Made by a program: the position numbers and the translations under genes
Shown here: one piece after another, positions 18,592-48,989 of the stretch
How the letters are laid out: each line of letters opens with the position of its first letter
Numbering within the stretch: position 1 is the first letter of the stretch
Assembly: GCA_964526475.1 (NCBI GenBank)
Contig: CAZGKF010000009.1
Span: 10,248-74,247, forward strand
DNA from: an uncultured Bacteroidaceae bacterium
GTDB taxonomy: Bacteria > Bacteroidota > Bacteroidia > Bacteroidales > GCA-2748055
DNA: 64,000 nt
Reading direction: 5' to 3'
The notes under the pieces: model-generated
Told to the model about the DNA's origin: nothing
Seen by the model: only the letters and a program-made list of their open reading frames with translations
Database searches by the model: none

Positions 18592-18767
18592 GAGTATAAA
18601 TTTTTGGTTAATAAATAGAAAATGTTTTTACTGCTTAATTTGAAAAAAATGAGGAAAATCAGCGTGGGAAAAAATCTTTTTTAGAATAAAGTGCACCAGC
18701 AATTTGCAGTGCAGTCAATACCTGACTAATATCACCTTTGCTCCATCCAATCATTTAACAGAGCTAA

Positions 18768-18892
18768 GGGCTAATAGTGAACGGGTTCTATTTCACACCA
18801 TAGCCGATGGTAATCGGTAATGCTAAATTAGAGCAATGGGTTAATAGCGAACAGGTTCTGTTTCATATCGTAGTCAATGGTATTCGGTAATC
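18768..18892. repeat. Two degenerate tandem copies (70-nt period, ~55 nt aligned, roughly 80 percent identity by eye)
   Basis: GGGCTAATAGTGAACGGGTTCTATTTCACACCATAGCCGATGGTAATCGGTAATG (18768-18822) versus GGGTTAATAGCGAACAGGTTCTGTTTCATATCGTAGTCAATGGTATTCGGTAATC (18838-18892). Both lie in an ~880-nt ORF-poor interval. Confidence 0.6.
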
Positions 18893-41483: not shown

Positions 41484-43841
41484 ATGCAGACAAGTAAAAT
41501 GAAATCACTAAAGTTTACACTAATCGCACTGGCCTTAACACTTATATGCCTCCAGAATTTATCTGCCACTGAACCGGATATTTCCGGTAATGCAGTACTC
41601 AGCGGGTATATAAAAGACGCCTCCAACGGTGAAACTCTCATCGGGGCTACCGTTTATATCAGGGAATTACATGCCGGAACAATTACCAATGTATATGGTT
41701 TTTATTCTCTTAGCGTTCCGCCGGGAGTTTATAATGTAAACTTTTCCTATGTGGGTTATGAAAATATCGAACAGCAGATTCAAATTACAGGGAAAATTAC
41801 TTTTAATCCTGATCTCCGGGTCAGTTATATTAATCTGCAGGAAGTTGAAGTAAGCCCGACTAAAACCAACAGTAATGTTTTTGATAACCAAATGAGTTCA
41901 ATCCGAATCAATACGGAAGATATTAAACGTATGCCTGCATTTATGGGGGAAGCAGATGTGCTTAAATCCATACAGTTATTACCGGGTGTTCAGAGTTCGG
42001 GAGAAGGTTTCTCGGGCTTTAACGTCAGGGGAGGATCGGCCGATCAAAACCTGATTCTTCTGGATGAAGCCACTGTTTATAATCCATCTCACCTTCTTGG
42101 TTTTTTCTCAGTGTTTAACTCCGATGCCATCAAGGATGTGAAAATCTATAAAGGCGATATCCCGGCACAATACGGAGGCAGGCTATCCTCGCTTCTGGAT
42201 ATACGTATGAAGGATGAAAATTCCAAAAAGCCACAGGTCACCGGAGGAATTGGAAGCATTGCCAGCCGGCTGACAGTTGAAGCTCCGCTTATTAAGGATA
42301 AGTCTTCAATCCTGCTTTCCGGAAGAAGAACCTATGCGGACCTGTTTCTTCCACTCACAAAGGATACCCTGCTGCACAATAATAAACTTTTTTTCTACGA
42401 TTTGAATATGAAAGCAAGTTACTCCATAAATGATAAAAACCGGATTTTTTTCTCGGGTTATTTTGGGCGCGATGTATTTTCTTTCCGCGATATGTTCAAC
42501 ATGCAGTGGGGAAATGCCACCGAAACCTTCCGTTGGAACCATATCTTTAATGATAGGCTTTTTTCCAATATTTCACTGATCTATTCCGATTATAATTATT
42601 CCATGGACATTAACCAGGGAATGAATACCTTTAAATGGGAATCGCTGATCCGCGATATCGGCGGCAAGGCTGATTTAACCTGGTATGCTGATCCTAATAA
42701 TACCTTTCGTTTTGGCATGCATGCTACCCATCACTATATTGAACCCGGTAATATAGAGAACAAAGTAAGTGGACAACAGATAGAAGTAGCTCTTAACAAG
42801 TCGATGGATTATGCCCTATATCTTTCAAATGATCAAAAAGTCAGTGAGAAATTCCTTATGAACTATGGTATGCGGTTTTCCGTCCTTCAAAATATTGGGA
42901 CAGCCACCGTATTCAGATATAACGATTCCTTTGAAGTAATCGATACATCGTATTACACCGGAAGTAAACCCTATCATAGCAATGCAGGATTTGAACCAAG
43001 ATTTAGTATGACCTATATCTTTAATTCATCACTTTCCGTAAAAGCCAGCTATTCGAAAACCCGGCAATACCTCCAGCTGGCATCCAATTCATCCGCAGGA
43101 CTTCCTACCGATGTCTGGTTTCCTTCTTCACCAAATATTAAACCACAGGTTTCTGAACAGGTAGCAACGGGAATTTTTAAAAACCTGTTTAATGATAAAC
43201 TGGAATTATCAGTTGAAGGATATTACAAGAAAATGTACAATCAAATCGACTTCCGGGAAAACGCACAACTTTACTTCAATGATAAGCTGGAAGCTGAAAT
43301 CAGAACTGGAAAAGCCTTTTCCTATGGAATGGAATTTATGATTCGGAAGCAGTCGGGTAAGCTAACCGGTTGGATTGGGTACACTTTATCAACTGCCCGG
43401 AGGAAGATCGAAGAAATCAACAACGGGGACTGGTACCGTTCCAGTTACGATAAGCCCCATAACCTGGTTGTGGTTGCAAACTATGATATTTCACCCCGCG
43501 TGAACCTTGGTGCAAACTGGATTTTCACCAGCGGGGCTCCCATTACCCTGCCTACCGGGAAATGGGAATATGGAAACATGATCCTCCCATCTTACTCAGA
43601 GCGTAATGGCTACAGACTACCGGATTATCATCGGCTGGATATATCCGCTACCATTCAACTCAACAGTAAACCCAAAAAATTCCTTTCAGAAATGAATATT
43701 TCCTGTTACAATGCTTATAACCGGAAAAATCCTTTTACCATATATTTCGAACCAGACCAAACAGATAATAATACCATGAAGGCTTATAAATTAAGTATGT
43801 TCGGAATTATTCCGGCCGTTACATGGAATTTTAGATTCTGA
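41484..43841 (+). CDS. TonB-dependent receptor (CarboxypepD_reg + plug + beta-barrel)
   Basis: 785 aa; signal peptide (probable start MKSLKFTLIALAL at 41499), ..LSGYIKDASNGETLIGATVYI..GFYSL..GVYNVNFSYVGYE.., a plug region, and a C-terminal aromatic residue (..TWNFRF). Confidence 0.9.
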   Translation: MQTSKMKSLKFTLIALALTLICLQNLSATEPDISGNAVLSGYIKDASNGETLIGATVYIRELHAGTITNVYGFYSLSVPPGVYNVNFSYVGYENIEQQIQITGKITFNPDLRVSYINLQEVEVSPTKTNSNVFDNQMSSIRINTEDIKRMPAFMGEADVLKSIQLLPGVQSSGEGFSGFNVRGGSADQNLILLDEATVYNPSHLLGFFSVFNSDAIKDVKIYKGDIPAQYGGRLSSLLDIRMKDENSKKPQVTGGIGSIASRLTVEAPLIKDKSSILLSGRRTYADLFLPLTKDTLLHNNKLFFYDLNMKASYSINDKNRIFFSGYFGRDVFSFRDMFNMQWGNATETFRWNHIFNDRLFSNISLIYSDYNYSMDINQGMNTFKWESLIRDIGGKADLTWYADPNNTFRFGMHATHHYIEPGNIENKVSGQQIEVALNKSMDYALYLSNDQKVSEKFLMNYGMRFSVLQNIGTATVFRYNDSFEVIDTSYYTGSKPYHSNAGFEPRFSMTYIFNSSLSVKASYSKTRQYLQLASNSSAGLPTDVWFPSSPNIKPQVSEQVATGIFKNLFNDKLELSVEGYYKKMYNQIDFRENAQLYFNDKLEAEIRTGKAFSYGMEFMIRKQSGKLTGWIGYTLSTARRKIEEINNGDWYRSSYDKPHNLVVVANYDISPRVNLGANWIFTSGAPITLPTGKWEYGNMILPSYSERNGYRLPDYHRLDISATIQLNSKPKKFLSEMNISCYNAYNRKNPFTIYFEPDQTDNNTMKAYKLSMFGIIPAVTWNFRF

Positions 43842-43861
43842 AGGTAGAGACCAGGCATGCC

Positions 43862-44575
43862 TTGTCTCTCACCTCCACCAGTCACTTCTTTAAAACTGTA
43901 TATATCCTGTTTATTGGTCTTTTGTGTCTGTACCTTCAATATTCCATCAAGCGTTTGATTATTAAGCAGACTGAGGTAAAAACCCAGGTCGTTGAACTTC
44001 AGAAAGAAAACCTGCAGGCACAATTCCAGATGCTAAAACAACAGGTTAATCCGCATTTCCTGTTTAACAGTCTGAATGTACTTACTTCCCTCATAAAAAC
44101 CGAACCTGAGCTTGCTGAGAAATTTACTGAACAATTATCTAAGGTATACAGGTATGTGCTTGAAAATAAGGATAAGGACCTTATCCCATTGAATACTGAG
44201 ATGAACTTTCTCAGGGCTTATATCTTTTTACTCGATATCAGGTTTATGGGAAAAATGAAAATAGATATAGAATTTGATGAGCAAAGAGAAGACAAACTTT
44301 TACCGCCCCTCTCGTTACAGATCATTATTGAAAATGCGATCAAGCATAATACATTTTCCAGAAAATCCCCCCTGCATGTGAGACTTTTTATTGATGAAAA
44401 TGATTATCTCAACGTAGTAAACAACCTGCAAAGCAGGGAAACTCAATTCGCATCTACCGGAACAGGATTGGAGAATATTATTAACCGTTATGCCCTGATC
44501 TCAGATCGCGTTCCGGTTTTTAAAAAGACGGATGATCAATATTTTGCTATGATACCTCTTTTAAATAAACACTAA
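43862..44575 (+). CDS. Short LytS-type histidine kinase (one TM + His_kinase + HATPase_c)
   Basis: 237 aa (TTG start); ..LKQQVNPHFLFNSLNVLTSLI.., ..LQIIIENAIKHN.., ..GTGLENI... Confidence 0.8.
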   Translation: MSLTSTSHFFKTVYILFIGLLCLYLQYSIKRLIIKQTEVKTQVVELQKENLQAQFQMLKQQVNPHFLFNSLNVLTSLIKTEPELAEKFTEQLSKVYRYVLENKDKDLIPLNTEMNFLRAYIFLLDIRFMGKMKIDIEFDEQREDKLLPPLSLQIIIENAIKHNTFSRKSPLHVRLFIDENDYLNVVNNLQSRETQFASTGTGLENIINRYALISDRVPVFKKTDDQYFAMIPLLNKH

Positions 44576-44675
44576 AATATATATGTAAACCTTTTTACCC
44601 ATCGTGTCCATCAATATACTGTCTTTATTGCGAAGAGAAACAAGGTGGGACTAAAGAGAGATAAATATCACATCC

Positions 44676-45443
44676 ATGAAAGTAATAATAATTGAAGACG
44701 AAATACTGTCAGCGCAGAGATTAAAAAAGATGATATCTGATTACAGTCCTGATATTGAGGTGATTGCTGAATTAGAATCTATTGAAGAATCTATCAAATG
44801 GTTCAATCAGAATCCTCATCCTGATCTTATCTTTCTTGATATTCATCTTGAAGATGATTTAAGCTTTGCCATTTTTGAGAAGGTAAATATTTCGAGTCCT
44901 ATAATTTTCACAACTGCTTTTGATGAATATGCCATTAAAGCGTTTAAGCTGAAAAGTATTGATTATTTGCTGAAACCGGTGGCTCAGGAAGAATTGAATG
45001 CTGCTCTTAAGAAATACAGGGAAATGACAAAAGGCCAGGGTATTTCTACAGAACTTAATGCCCTTTACGAGATGATAGTTCAAAAAATGCCTAAATACCG
45101 TGAACGGTTCTCTGTGGCTTACGGACAAAAAATTAAAACCTTCAGTATAGAGGAAATTGCATATTTTATTAGTAACGAAGGAAGCACCAGTGCATGTTTA
45201 TACGATGGCAAATCTTATCCGGTTGATGAAAGTATAGAAAAGCTAAAGAATGAACTGGATCCTGTTGATTTTTTTCGTATAAACAGGCAATTGTTGGTAA
45301 AGCTTAATGCCATTGCAAATGTGCATGTGTATCCAAAGAGCCGTTTAAAACTGGAATTAAAACCTGATCCGGGATTCGAAGTATATGTGAGTATTGATAA
45401 AGTTGTGCCTTTTAAGGAATGGTATGGGGGTAAAGTCAGATAG
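44676..45443 (+). CDS. LytTR-family response regulator
   Basis: 255 aa; receiver MKVIIIEDE..DLIFLDIHL..KP; LytTR domain ..FFRINRQLLV... Confidence 0.9.
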   Translation: MKVIIIEDEILSAQRLKKMISDYSPDIEVIAELESIEESIKWFNQNPHPDLIFLDIHLEDDLSFAIFEKVNISSPIIFTTAFDEYAIKAFKLKSIDYLLKPVAQEELNAALKKYREMTKGQGISTELNALYEMIVQKMPKYRERFSVAYGQKIKTFSIEEIAYFISNEGSTSACLYDGKSYPVDESIEKLKNELDPVDFFRINRQLLVKLNAIANVHVYPKSRLKLELKPDPGFEVYVSIDKVVPFKEWYGGKVR

Positions 45444-45544
45444 ACAAAATAATTCATAGTTAAGCAATTTTTTAATAGAGCGAGTTAATTGCCGGAGTTT
45501 CAAACTGATTGTCAAATATATAAACCGGATGATTGCAGCAATAA

Positions 45545-46042
45545 TCAAAGCCTGGGATTAATATTTGTTTTGTCAGCAGCCAGATATCCCCCCCTGACGG
45601 TGGCCCCTATTACGATTCCTGCACTTATCAGCACCAGGTTTTTAAGAATATATTGCCCTTCAAGGGTGGGAACCCAGGGCACCACATTAAAAACTTCGTC
45701 CGGAAATATAAATACCGGAGTCAGGGTGCCCAGCATCTGAAGAAGAAGTAAAAGAATAATTTCACGCAGAAATAATCCACTCAGCAGGCCAATCCCAATT
45801 ACAACCTCCCACACTGCAAGTATAATAACGCCTGACTTCCCGCTAACGAATCCAAAAGTCATAATCTCTATTGTTTTGGCAGCCAGTTCCTGAGCAGGGC
45901 TTACTCCTGGGAAAAATTTCAGTAGCCCGAACCAGAAAAAAATGATACCAACACTTACCCTAAGTAAAAGTATACCATTCCTAGCCATCCATGAGGTAAC
46001 CATTTTGTCGATACGGTTAAATCGGTTTCCTTTTAAATACAT
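45545..46042 (-). CDS. DUF417 (YkgB/RclC-like) or DoxX-like small membrane protein
   Basis: 165 aa; ..LLRVSVGIIFFWFGLLKFFPGVSPA.. and ..GQYILKNLVLISAGIVIGA.. resemble E. coli YkgB as I remember it. Confidence 0.5.
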   Translation of the reverse strand: MYLKGNRFNRIDKMVTSWMARNGILLLRVSVGIIFFWFGLLKFFPGVSPAQELAAKTIEIMTFGFVSGKSGVIILAVWEVVIGIGLLSGLFLREIILLLLLQMLGTLTPVFIFPDEVFNVVPWVPTLEGQYILKNLVLISAGIVIGATVRGGYLAADKTNINPRL

Positions 46043-46166
46043 CGGTTTATCTTTTGTTATTCCTGTAACAAACGAATGGCCAAAAATGTTAAATATATCG
46101 CAGAAATATCATAAAAAAAATTGGGGACTGCTCCGGTCTGATGAAACATCGTAGGTGGGGCGGTAA

Positions 46167-46258
46167 AGACGCAATGCATTGTCTCCCTGCTATTGTAAAT
46201 AAATCCTCAGCGATTAAATTTATTATTCCTTCAATAATTGTATTTTTACACTAGCAGC
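46167..46258 (+). repeat. Left copy of the ~95-nt composite element (half palindrome GACGCAATGCATTG + long imperfect hairpin)
   Basis: AAGACGCAATGCATTGTCTCCCTGCTATTGTAAAT..TTTTTACACTAGCAGC. It aligns with the right copy with a few substitutions. The stem CCCTGCTATTGTAAA / TTTACACTAGCAGC has 2 mismatches. Confidence 0.8.
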
Positions 46259-46405
46259 ACCACTTCGCCTGAAAACCCGAAAAAGGAGGATAGTTAGTGA
46301 TCATTTTATGCATTTATACTGGTTTCAGATAGAAGATATGAAATAGGAATTAGCACCACAAGAGTAGTTAATTCCAGAAAACAGAAAAAAATTGCTACAT
46401 AACCA

Positions 46406-47434
46406 ATGTCTGATCGGTTTAATAAAATATACCGCATACCTTCCGTCCGATTGCAAAATTGGGATTACAGCAGCAATGCGGCATATTTTATTACCATTTG
46501 TACCAAAGACAGGAAACATTTTTTTGGAGAAATAGCCGATGGGGTTATGATATTGTCCGATATTGGGATAATTGCGGAACAGGAATGGTTAAAAACATTT
46601 GAAATGCGGCCGGACATGAATTTACAAATGGATAAATTTGTGGTTATGCCGAATCATTTTCATGGTATAATCATTATAGGTGAAAATGAATATAATAAAC
46701 AGGTTACGGAACGAGGGTTGCAACGGGATACGGAACGAAATACGGAATGGGAAACGGAACGGGAAACGGAATGGGAAATGGAACGGGAAATGGAACGGGA
46801 AACGGAACGGGAAATGGAAAGGGAAACGGAACGGGAAATGGAACGGGAAACGGAATGGGAAACGGAACGGGAAACGGAACGGGAAACGGAACGGGAAACG
46901 GAACGGGAAATGGAATGGGAAATGGAACGGGAAACGGAACGGGAAACGGAATGGGAAATGGAATGGGAAACGGAATGGGAAATGGAATGGGAAATGGAAT
47001 GGGAAATGGAATGTAGAGACGCAATGCATTGCGTCTCTCCCACCGGTCCCACCGGTCCCACCGGTTCCACCGGTTCCACCGGTTCCACCGGTCCCACCGG
47101 TTCCACCGGTTCCACCGGTCCCACCGGACCCACCGGTTCCACCGGTCCCGACAACCCTGCCAAATCCAACCCCTCCGCCAACACAAAACAACCAGGCACG
47201 GTCGTTAAACCCAAAAACCAATTCGGACCACAAACAAAAAATTTGGCATCCATTATCCGTGGGTTTAAAATTGGTGTAACCACACGTGCGCGATTAATTC
47301 GTGATGATTTCGCCTGGCAATCCCGTTTTCACGAACATATTATCCGAAATGAGGAATCTTTTCAAAATATTTCAAAATACATTATAAACAATCCCGCCAA
47401 TTGGAAACAAGATGGATTACACAACAAACCGTAG
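46406..47434 (+). CDS. IS200-like / REP-associated tyrosine transposase (Y1 HUH family) carrying ~150 codons of in-frame repeat-derived insert
   Basis: N-terminal block ..[35 protein letters not shown] (H-U-H). C-terminal block [59 protein letters not shown]. Codons ~101-248 come from the tandem repeats and the palindrome. Confidence 0.8.
46706..47013 (+). repeat. 12-nt microsatellite AYGGAAYGGGAA: 22.7 contiguous copies (46742-47013) preceded by ~3 degenerate copies
   Basis: Counted unit by unit from the sequence. The only variation is C/T at unit positions 2 and 8, plus one A. Confidence 0.95.
47015..47038. repeat. Perfect 24-nt palindrome AGAGACGCAATG/CATTGCGTCTCT (REP-like hairpin) inside the transposase ORF
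   Basis: Self-complementary over all 24 nt. The same GACGCAATGCATTG core starts both flanking elements (46168 and 47436 regions). Confidence 0.95.
47041..47148 (+). repeat. 9-nt microsatellite CACCGGTYC, 12 contiguous copies
   Basis: Counted from the sequence. Each unit contains the palindrome ACCGGT. Variation is C/T at position 8 and one T-to-A at position 7. It is translated as (P/S)TG repeats. Confidence 0.95.
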
Positions 47435-47528
47435 AGACGCAATGCATTGCTTCCCTGCTATTGTAAAAAAAATCCTCAGCGATTAAATTTATTATTCCCC
47501 TAATAATTGTATTTTTACAATAGCAGGG
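47431..47528 (+). repeat. Right copy of the composite element, with a perfect 17-bp stem
   Basis: GTAGAGACGCAATGCATTGCTTCCCTGCTATTGTAAAAA(47453-47469)..42-nt loop..TTTTTACAATAGCAGGG(47512-47528). It contains the transposase stop codon TAG 47432-47434. Confidence 0.85.
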
Positions 47529-47637
47529 TAGTATGCAGCGCTTTGGCGCGCCAGCGAAGATTACCTGCAAACCTTAGACCTTATAGATAACAATTCTGCA
47601 CGATACTTAAGTTTGCAGGTAATGAACAAATTAAAAA

Positions 47638-48366
47638 ATGATGACAAAGCCAATTCTGATTCTTAGAAACATACCCAGGGAAAATCCCGGACTCATAGAA
47701 ATTTTATTGAAAGAATATTCTGTTAAATATCAAATAGTTGATTTTGACAATTCAACAGAAATTGTTATCGAAAATTACGGTGCATTAATTGTTCTGGGGG
47801 GACCTTATAGTGCAAATGATTTGTCTCCAAAAATGCAAAATGAATTATTATTAATCAGAAATGCTTTACAGGCACATATCCCCTTTCTCGGAGTTTGCTT
47901 AGGATTACAGACCTTAGTCAAGGCAATGGGAGGCAATGTGGTAAAGTGCCAAATCAATGAAATAGGATTCAGGGATCCTGCAAATAACTTCTTCAAAGTG
48001 ATATTAACTTCCGAAGGCAGAAGAGATAAACTCTTTAATAACTTGTCTGATAATCTTACTGTTTTTCAACTACACGGGGAGACAGTACAACTTACTCCAC
48101 AAATGATTCTGTTAGCCACCGGAGATTTCTGTAAGAATCAAATTATAAAAATTGGTAAAAATGCATATGGTATTCAATCTCATTTTGAATTAACCAATGA
48201 CCTCCTGGAATCATGGATTATCGAGGATACTGACCTCCAAAAACTTCAAGCTGAACAACTGCGATCTGATTTTGAAAAAATTAGAACAGAGTATCAAAAC
48301 ACCGGACGGCAAATATTTTATAACTTCCTTATTATTGCAGGATTAATAAATTCTACGAACGCCTGA
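47638..48366 (+). CDS. Class I (type 1) glutamine amidotransferase-like protein
   Basis: 242 aa; nucleophile elbow ..PFLGVCLGLQ.. and ..YGIQSHFE.. (His/Glu of the triad). Confidence 0.85.
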   Translation: MMTKPILILRNIPRENPGLIEILLKEYSVKYQIVDFDNSTEIVIENYGALIVLGGPYSANDLSPKMQNELLLIRNALQAHIPFLGVCLGLQTLVKAMGGNVVKCQINEIGFRDPANNFFKVILTSEGRRDKLFNNLSDNLTVFQLHGETVQLTPQMILLATGDFCKNQIIKIGKNAYGIQSHFELTNDLLESWIIEDTDLQKLQAEQLRSDFEKIRTEYQNTGRQIFYNFLIIAGLINSTNA

Positions 48367-48638
48367 CACAGACGATATAATTGATAAGCACGACATGGTT
48401 TTTGTTTTCCTGCTGGCAGGCAGGAAACCAGGATTATTCGTCGCTTCGCTCCTCATGATCCTGGTAAGGGGGGTAATTCAAAGAAAAAGCCTTCATTCGC
48501 ATCGCTATCGCTCGCTCATTACGGGCTTTATCTTCCATCCGCTTATGAAAGCGAGTGTAAAGTGAAATCAGGATTTAATTATTAATCTGAAACTTATTAA
48601 GTGCGAGTCAGCGCTTTCAACGCGTCTGTAAGAATAAA

Positions 48639-48662
48639 GCCCTCCCGCTAATGCGGGAAGGC
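48639..48662. terminator. Hairpin GCCCTCCCGC-TAAT-GCGGGAAGGC followed by TTTTTCTTTT (copy 1 of the duplicated terminator)
   Basis: 10-bp GC-rich stem (one G.U/A.C position depending on strand). A T-run follows on the plus strand and TTTATTCTT follows on the minus strand, so it could terminate transcripts from either direction. Confidence 0.55.
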
Positions 48663-48879
48663 TTTTTCTTTTGTCGGGGTGGCAGATTAGCTTTGCTGAT
48701 CCTGTATTGGGGGTGAACTAAAAGAAAAAGCCTTCATTCGCATCGCTATCGCTCGCTCATTACGGGCTTTATCTTCCATCCGCTTATGAAAGCGAGTGTA
48801 AAGTGAAATCAGGATTTAATTATTAATCTGAAACTTATTAAGTGCGAGTCAGCGCTTTCAACGCGTCTGTAAGAATAAA

Positions 48880-48903
48880 GCCCTCCCGCTAATGCGGGAA
48901 GGC
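48880..48903. terminator. Same hairpin (copy 2), located 12 nt downstream of the tRNA-Pro 3' end on the minus strand
   Basis: Identical sequence to 48639-48662. Its position fits a tRNA terminator (minus strand) and a terminator for the plus-strand GATase transcript. Confidence 0.6.
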
Positions 48904-48914
48904 TTTTTCTTTTG

Positions 48915-48989
48915 TCGGGGTGGCAGGATTCGAACCTGCGACCCCCTGCTCCCAAAGCAGGTGCGCTAACCGGACTGCGCTACACCCCG
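48915..48989 (-). tRNA. tRNA-Pro (anticodon UGG)
   Basis: The reverse complement folds as CGGGGTG-TA-GCGC-AGTCCGGTTA-GCGC-A-CCTGC-TTTGGGA-GCAGG-GGGTC-GCAGG-TTCGAAT-CCTGC-CACCCCG-A, 75 nt. All four stems are Watson-Crick. CCA is not encoded. Confidence 0.95.

Follow-up and report, generated by a model that had tools for sequence, protein, structure and literature searches.

An in-frame palindrome between two long tandem arrays in the linker of a subclass 2.4 REP-associated tyrosine transposase gene from an uncultured Bacteroidaceae bacterium

The Escherichia coli transposase TnpA_REP binds hairpins of repetitive extragenic palindromes (REPs) with a 5′ GTAG guide, and it cleaves and rejoins single-stranded DNA (ssDNA). 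Among REP-associated tyrosine transposases (RAYTs), group 4 has to our knowledge never been studied biochemically, and we know of no function that has been proposed for the palindrome inside its genes. According to Quentin et al. 2018 (BMC Genomics 19:475, PMC6006769), who give the subclass signatures in their Table 1 and whose TnpA_REP subclass 2.4 corresponds to what Bertels et al. 2017 call RAYT group 4, the genes of this subclass contain in-frame REPs with GTAG feet, placed between the HuH and Tyr motifs in a hypervariable linker that holds short repeats (their Fig. S6, with two box colors, and also Fig. S10), and the linker region is an extension at the periphery that affects activity little. 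Here, we analyzed such a gene at 46406-47434 (+) of a 64,000-nt stretch of DNA from an uncultured Bacteroidaceae bacterium (contig CAZGKF010000009.1; we call the whole stretch the window and count positions along it), in which a perfect palindrome is read in frame between two long tandem arrays. The original prediction for this locus, made from the sequence alone, knew of no description of tandem repeats beside such a hairpin, a statement that the work of Quentin et al. contradicts, and because in-gene REPs and short linker repeats were already published, the locus mainly adds an extreme example. We give a probability of roughly 0.65 to the reading that the locus is the hypervariable β3-αC surface-loop linker of a subclass 2.4 RAYT, with the cognate palindrome in frame, and that its arrays are in-frame minisatellites nucleated by the hairpin.

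The open reading frame (ORF) encodes 342 amino acids (aa), is the sole long ORF with homologues at this place, and has all of its catalytic motifs intact. The HuH motif NHFH (aa 83-86, nt 46652-46663) matches the subclass 2.4 signature NH[IFV]H, with H84, F85, and H86 invariant in our alignment (A5), the W motif WQ (W304-Q305, nt 47315-47320) also matches that subclass, and the Tyr motif YIINNP (aa 325-330, nt 47378-47395) matches YIxNNP. For the insert-free protein there are 5831 homologues with a typical length of 185-210 aa, many of them named "REP element-mobilizing transposase RayT" by JGI. The best curated model is NCBIfam REP_Tyr_transpos (NF047646), at 59.7 and 64.3 bits, below its cut-off of 80, while Pfam Y1_Tnp (PF01797) gives 15.7 bits, below its cut-off of 23, and the profile match to 4er8_A has E = 8e-7. 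An AlphaFold2 (AF2) model made from 60 sequences has a confident core (predicted local distance difference test, pLDDT, >90), and Foldseek ranks 1-29 of this model against the PDB are Y1 HUH transposases only (ISDra2, IS608, IS200, and E. coli TnpA_REP 4ER8), with probabilities of 0.93-1.00 and only ~67 residues aligned because the insert splits the HUH domain. The insert (95-275) comes in the model after strand 84-91 and before helix 276-298, as a β3-αC insertion between the HuH and Tyr motifs. The motifs, predicted fold, and profile matches identify the gene as a domesticated-type RAYT of TnpA_REP subclass 2.4 (group 4), and its earlier assignment as a REP-type HUH/Tyr transposase stands. 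No record of the exact 342-aa protein was found elsewhere, and the genome scan returned relatives only, with an identity of at most 61%.

The ORF reads, in order, (R/W)E(T/M)E 22 times, CRDAMHCVS, and (P/S)TG 12 times. Upstream, four degenerate 12-nt units with 1-5 mismatches to YGGGAAAYGGAA (46700-46747, +) form the palindrome-distal end of the array, followed by 22 clean YGGGAAAYGGAA units in codon register with at most one mismatch (46748-47011, +), which encode (R/W)E(T/M)E; Tandem Repeats Finder reports period 12, 24.2 copies, 90% matches, and a score of 412 at 46722-47011. The GTAG-footed palindrome GT-AGAGACGCAATGCATTGCGTCTCT (47013-47038, +) encodes CRDAMHCVS in frame and is followed by twelve 9-nt units YCCACCGGT (47039-47146, +) that encode (P/S)TG, one of them with a T>A change, for which Tandem Repeats Finder gives period 9, 12.4 copies, and a score of 175 at 47038-47149. 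Four degenerate 9-nt-like units (47147-47182, +), with 4-5 mismatches and the YCC-NCC pattern kept, make up the palindrome-distal end of the downstream array, and no spacer lies between the palindrome and either array. The repeat finder and the codon-register units both recovered the three elements that had been predicted, at the same places and in one frame. The count of 12 contiguous 9-mers was exact, and that of "~23 plus ~3 degenerate" 12-mers was essentially right, since we counted 22 clean and 4 degenerate units. It is also true that the unit lengths are multiples of 3 and that the frame stays open throughout; the open frame is automatic, because both units are free of stops in all six frames, which gives six overlapping ORFs, and the only informative frame fact is that both unit lengths are multiples of 3.

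Both arrays show the same polarity, as they are perfect at the palindrome end, with three or four identical units per side, and decay at their far ends only. The three 9-nt units nearest the palindrome are identical, and the T/T 12-mer units, also identical, cluster beside it. Variation among the 12-mers consists of C/T at both CpG positions plus one C>A, and the C/T changes could come from deamination at methylated CpG or from shuffling of two founder variants. In the AF2 model, the 12-mer array forms one long α-helix of ~90 residues (109-199, pLDDT 92-98), a prediction to be treated with caution for a charged repeat, the palindrome peptide is disordered, and the 9-mer tract, which is collagen-like (Gly-X-Y), is predicted to be disordered with pLDDT <50. 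With only 12 triplets, this tract scores 24.1 bits against Pfam Collagen (PF01391), below the cut-off of 27.2. Read as its reverse complement (CCGGTGGGA), the 9-mer is similar to the 12-mer's ACGGAATGGGA less 3 nt, and pairing between the two arrays is possible in the ssDNA fold (z = -3.5). We do not claim that the arrays are mirror images or one giant quasi-palindrome, as 6% of unit-permuted controls score equally, and flank symmetry beyond the palindrome was not general among 53 relatives (p = 0.18).

The 24-nt palindrome AGAGACGCAATGCATTGCGTCTCT (47015-47038) is preceded by TGT in frame and, as had been predicted, is the single perfect copy in the 64 kb, where shuffles give 0 expected matches. 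A 2-mismatch copy lies at 47433-47456, and the half GACGCAATGCATTG recurs at 46168 and 47436, where it heads the ~97-nt direct repeats on both sides, also in line with the prediction. Palindrome copies within the 64 kb number three, all at the RAYT locus. As an ssDNA hairpin, the palindrome folds with -10.6 kcal/mol (z = -4.7), and we regard it as a putative REP-type recognition hairpin. Its 5′ foot GTAG is intact on the coding strand (47013-47016); its 3′ foot is CTCC, where the usual family foot is CTAC, so that the bottom strand is without a guide. Under the double-foot criterion (5′ GT[AG]G ... C[TC]AC 3′), the window has GTAG...CTCC and most relatives have the full GTAGAGAC...GTCTCTAC. 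A literature search with the palindrome or peptide strings found no paper.

We compared the locus with 80 loci from species-representative genomes, mostly of Bacteroidota but also of Balneolota, Acidobacteriota, Calditrichota, and WOR-3, and with the 145 top protein matches. The N- and C-terminal blocks share a frame in all 80 loci, and in 60 of these the linker holds a palindrome whose stem is 10 bp or longer, while a recognizable version occurs in all but ~3 of the 145 proteins (~98%), bearing out the statement in the original prediction that relatives sometimes carry such a palindrome (..RDAMHCVS..) in the linker. Its usual form is the 28-nt GTAGAGACGC-NN-TGCA-NN-GCGTCTCTAC. The codon phases among the 60 loci are split 30/23/7, and the three phases translate one DNA as ..RDAMHCVST.., ..VETQCIASL.., or a third reading. 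The palindrome codons are frozen in 20 of 20 cases (Arg AGA, Asp GAC, Val GTC, Ser TCT), and scrambling is seen at the four-fold sites of the catalytic motifs and at the first codon past the palindrome. The sole variable third position covaries with its pairing partner, and central changes are compensatory. Because synonymous sites are frozen, the alignments indicate that selection on the palindrome acts on the DNA or RNA and not on the peptide, and we rejected a peptide-level function of RDAMHCVS, given that the same DNA is read in three phases with its synonymous positions frozen. Next to the feet, nothing is conserved beyond a G/C at position -1. The same palindrome variant occurs just outside the gene in 24 of the 60 loci, usually within ~160 nt of the gene ends, and in the other 36 the in-gene palindrome is the only copy within ±4 kb.

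Two further observations were made on these relatives. A second short insertion in the N-terminal part, ..DA(L/V)P(C/Y)VSLS.., is found in P0088, P0104, P0108, P0121, and P0141 between the residues equivalent to G41 and I53 of the window protein and resembles a palindrome-encoded peptide that has decayed; the DNA of this insertion does not form a clean palindrome in L085. RAYT homologues of two lineages also lie inside type I restriction-modification operons (L081 2501-3091, L082 2501-3124, and L085 1501-2427, also L086-L088), in one lineage between hsdS and hsdM and in the other between an hsdR-like helicase and an hsdM/S fusion, and in both lineages, their start and stop codons abut or overlap the neighboring genes.

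The normal linker length in homologues had been proposed as a check, and the normalized linker measures 513 nt in the window versus 0-210 nt in the 80 loci, or ~2.4 times the longest relative, with array copy numbers of 24 and 12 versus at most 7.3. The median HuH-to-KNL distance in the 145 proteins is 52 aa (interquartile range 44-57), and the window, at 189 aa, is exceeded by P0021 alone (199 aa). Extreme as it is, the window is not unique: ~32 upstream units are present in P0123. In the 80 loci, arrays whose period is divisible by 3 (3n) occur in 25 of 60 palindrome-bearing versus 2 of 20 palindrome-free linkers (Fisher p = 0.007, ignoring phylogeny), and the median length of the linker outside the palindrome is 51 nt versus 33 nt (p = 0.015, again ignoring phylogeny). 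The period is a multiple of 3 in 34 of the 43 arrays of relatives, and the units of 10 arrays include at least 8 nt of the palindrome. In L085 (protein P0121, 308 aa), upstream 12-nt units GACGCGCAATGC / GATGCGCAACGG copy the arm GACGCAATGC and are interspersed with GCAATGGAACGG and GCAACGGAATGG (AMER/ATEW), which are 11/12 identical to GAAATGGAACGG and GAAACGGAATGG of the window, so that the upstream 12-nt unit type is common to the family and its copy number is variable. Duplications end exactly at the palindrome in P0001, L024, L036, and others. Close pairs of alleles differ in the same region: L081 and L082 (~98% identical) by a 33-nt in-frame linker indel holding the REP, the near-identical L083 and L084 by a 285-nt in-frame indel in the downstream repeats that includes a second REP, and P0122 and P0123 by a 56-aa gap, or 14 upstream 12-nt units, with 270 of 272 residues identical. 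These comparisons show that the linker has repeatedly gained and lost in-frame repeats in the alleles and genomes examined here, often with palindrome-arm sequence.

We propose that the hairpin would nucleate replication slippage or template switching, that unequal recombination among existing units would then alter copy number, and that the arrays would have grown mainly at their palindrome-adjacent ends. Selection would remove non-3n variants and those adding hydrophobic or stop codons, letting hydrophilic, stop-free 3n variants pass, and the RAYT would have stayed intact, with a spacer of 171 aa that is predicted to form a long helix and then the disordered Gly-X-Y tract, in a loop pointing away from the active site. 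We consider this combination of hairpin-nucleated slippage or template switching, recombination, and 3n selection somewhat more probable than the opposite, and the spacer is most likely tolerated rather than adaptive. The observed polarity, with perfect units at the palindrome and decay at the far end, is what would be expected if units were added beside the hairpin. Along with the units built from arm sequence, the duplications bounded by the REP, and the 3n enrichment, it makes a hairpin that seeds slippage on both flanks the best supported of the three options in the original prediction, on comparative evidence only.

Several points weigh against this reading. Neither the 12-mer nor the 9-mer of the window is significantly similar to the palindrome arms (5/12 identities), and their link to the arms runs only through the 11/12 identity with the AMER/ATEW units of L085. 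The associations disregard phylogenetic non-independence, and in a short linker, array and palindrome can hardly avoid lying next to each other. Allele P0121, which is 308 aa in length and has a long array, occurs in exactly the same form on 15 contigs from several samples, which indicates that such arrays are not hypermutable on that timescale. Both curated profile thresholds are missed by the protein. The view of the palindrome as a tolerated passenger sits awkwardly with synonymous sites frozen across phyla, and the model does not account for the conservation of the in-gene palindrome.

That the arrays or their lengths are an assembly artefact, another of the predicted options, is highly unlikely. 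Run SRR7048221 has two Logan contigs, reached through the neighboring genes, that match 42045-46778 and 47098-48509 at 100% identity. They extend 2.5 units into the 12-mer array and take in the final 5.5 units of the 9-mer array, T>A variant included, so that the window is independently confirmed from 47098 onward (L091). Every 43-mer in 46690-47160 is unique, 43 being the smallest such k, so that reads of 100-150 nt resolve the path, and the aperiodic pattern of C/T variants is unlike a collapsed or looped repeat. Comparable arrays are also found in relatives, one of them assembled identically 15 times. In favor of an artefact, the Logan contigs break inside both arrays, leaving 46779-47097 and the copy numbers to one assembly, with the second supporting the outer array edges; such breaks are expected of a short-k assembly, because uniqueness needs k = 43. 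The lack of another record of the exact protein points the same way, as does the scan of metagenome contigs, in which neither a junction 39-mer nor the flanking element was matched. The existence of the arrays is therefore unlikely to be an artefact, while their interior copy numbers are less secure. A greater, though still minor, chance belongs to the idea that the arrays arose by ordinary low-complexity expansion, unrelated to the hairpin, in a disordered loop that is permissive, so that palindrome and repeats share only an insertion-tolerant part of the protein. The region is peripheral in the model of Quentin et al. and disordered after the helix in AF2, linkers are rich in T/E/D/N/P/G everywhere, and this idea also gains from the lack of conserved context beyond the feet, from window units that are not demonstrably arm-derived, and from statistics that ignore phylogeny. 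However, it accounts poorly for the 6-fold enrichment of 3n arrays in palindrome-bearing linkers, for the palindrome-arm sequence in the units of many relatives, and for duplications that terminate exactly at the palindrome, and the far-side-only decay of both window arrays fits growth at the hairpin.

The transposase itself might make the repeats if it nicked its own gene at the GTAG foot in ssDNA and if misaligned rejoining or repair then added or removed units, which we consider doubtful and which draws on analogy with the E. coli enzyme (4ER8) and its activity on GTAG-guided REP hairpins. Both arrays begin at the feet, the GTAG foot on the coding strand is intact, and alleles ~98% identical differ by the presence or absence of the REP, all of which would suit such a process, but the 3′ foot of the window is CTCC instead of CTAC and the downstream array expanded all the same, and slippage alone accounts for the same pattern. 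We find it more doubtful still that the linker is a functional, length-variable module akin to a contingency locus, or that the in-gene hairpin is an autoregulatory site tuning the level or activity of the transposase. Near-identical alleles do differ in linker length, the palindrome is constrained at the nucleotide level and often has no second copy nearby, and the predicted 90-residue helix of the 12-mer array is a possible spacer. Against this, linker sequences vary among relatives instead of being conserved, and the long allele is identical on its 15 contigs. A contingency-type linker had been predicted as well, and of that option, the length variability stands, since copy number differs between closely related alleles in relatives (14 units between P0122 and P0123, 285 nt between L083 and L084), while on/off switching is not supported, because unit lengths of 9 and 12 nt are multiples of 3 and keep the frame. 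A broader idea, about as doubtful as self-nicking, would make the in-gene palindrome a conserved cis-acting site for the RAYT or the replisome: the enzyme might bind or nick its own coding strand, autoregulating itself and remodeling the linker, with the minisatellites as a footprint, and the palindrome might be a protected master copy that links hairpin and enzyme even where dispersed REPs have been lost.

Same-REP copies flank the gene as half-palindromes at 46163-46181 and 47431-47450, with the right arm lost in both. The left flanking element (46163-46259, +) consists of a degenerate GTAG-type foot and left arm GTAAAGACGCAATGCATTG, without the right arm, and then a decayed copy of a ~75-nt hairpin whose fold is weak (z = -1.3). 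The right flanking element (47431-47531, +) has an intact foot and left arm GTAGAGACGCAATGCATTGC, a degenerate right arm, and then a strong hairpin with 20-nt arms that are 95% complementary (-24.4 kcal/mol, z = -7.3). The two elements are direct repeats, ~90% identical over their common ~97 nt, and the stop codon TAG of the gene (47432-47434) sits within the GTAG foot of the right one. Each flanking element appears as a composite, in which a REP left arm is joined to a separate ~75-nt hairpin, and no further copy exists in the 64 kb, nor did a 26-mer search find one in the metagenome contigs. A further hairpin (47560-47623, 18-nt arms, 89% complementary) lies between the right flanking element and a glutamine amidotransferase gene at 47638-48366. 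A 241-nt unit located ~1 kb downstream of the RAYT locus occurs in two tandem copies (48456-48926, 97% matches in Tandem Repeats Finder) that run into a tRNA-Pro(TGG) gene on the minus strand (48914-48989), the tRNA-Pro being the only match in an Rfam scan of the window, and a 70-nt unit is repeated 1.9 times at 18760-18891 (80% matches). Analysis of GC skew gave no answer as to which strand of the locus is the lagging-strand template.

Our results sharpen one open point, namely the nucleotide-level constraint on the in-gene palindrome across phyla, where three codon phases are used and the synonymous sites stay frozen. Loci with long polar arrays at both feet, together with the pairs of alleles in relatives that differ in unit number, offer a natural substrate for testing repeat instability driven by the hairpin or by the transposase, and could help show what group 4 RAYTs do.

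Several known systems share part of this architecture. Transposases of the IS200/IS605 family (IS608 and ISDra2, with subterminal hairpins at the left and right ends) are the best structural matches, and there too, one-strand hairpins flank the gene in direct orientation; however, IS200 transposases are without an internal hairpin or repeat linker, and multiple copies or mobility of the window unit 46163-47531 are not evident. The E. coli TnpA_REP with its REPs and bacterial interspersed mosaic elements (4ER8) has the same HUH/Tyr Y1 fold, a hairpin with a 5′ GTAG guide, and REPs that bracket the gene, but it belongs to subclass 2.2 (DHLH, WE, YIHYNP) and has neither an in-gene REP nor a repeat linker, and its REPs are highly repeated, whereas the window has three copies in 64 kb, all at one locus. 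REPs and Rickettsia palindromic elements are also said to insert in unrelated ORFs, as Di Nocera et al. 2013 reportedly described, and there as well, a palindromic repeat is translated in frame in a tolerant protein region; those insertions are sporadic and lineage-specific, whereas the RAYT palindrome lies at one conserved position of its own transposase across phyla. Similarly, simple-sequence contingency loci (phase variation) have tandem repeats within genes, in copy numbers that vary from one close allele to another, but the window units, being multiples of 3, allow no frame switching, and a high switching rate is not evident. The closest match is subclass 2.4, with the same motifs (NH[IFV]H, WQ, YIxNNP), an in-frame REP in the β3-αC loop, a linker of very variable length with short repeats, REPs flanking the gene, and relatives of Bacteroidota type. 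From its other members, the window differs in its linker (513 nt versus at most 210 nt) and copy numbers (24 and 12 versus at most 7.3), in a palindrome with one foot (GTAG...CTCC) instead of the "double foot," and in flanking REPs that are degenerate, directly oriented, and joined to a second 75-nt hairpin. Taken together, these comparisons place the locus as an unusually expanded member of a published class and not as a new kind of element.

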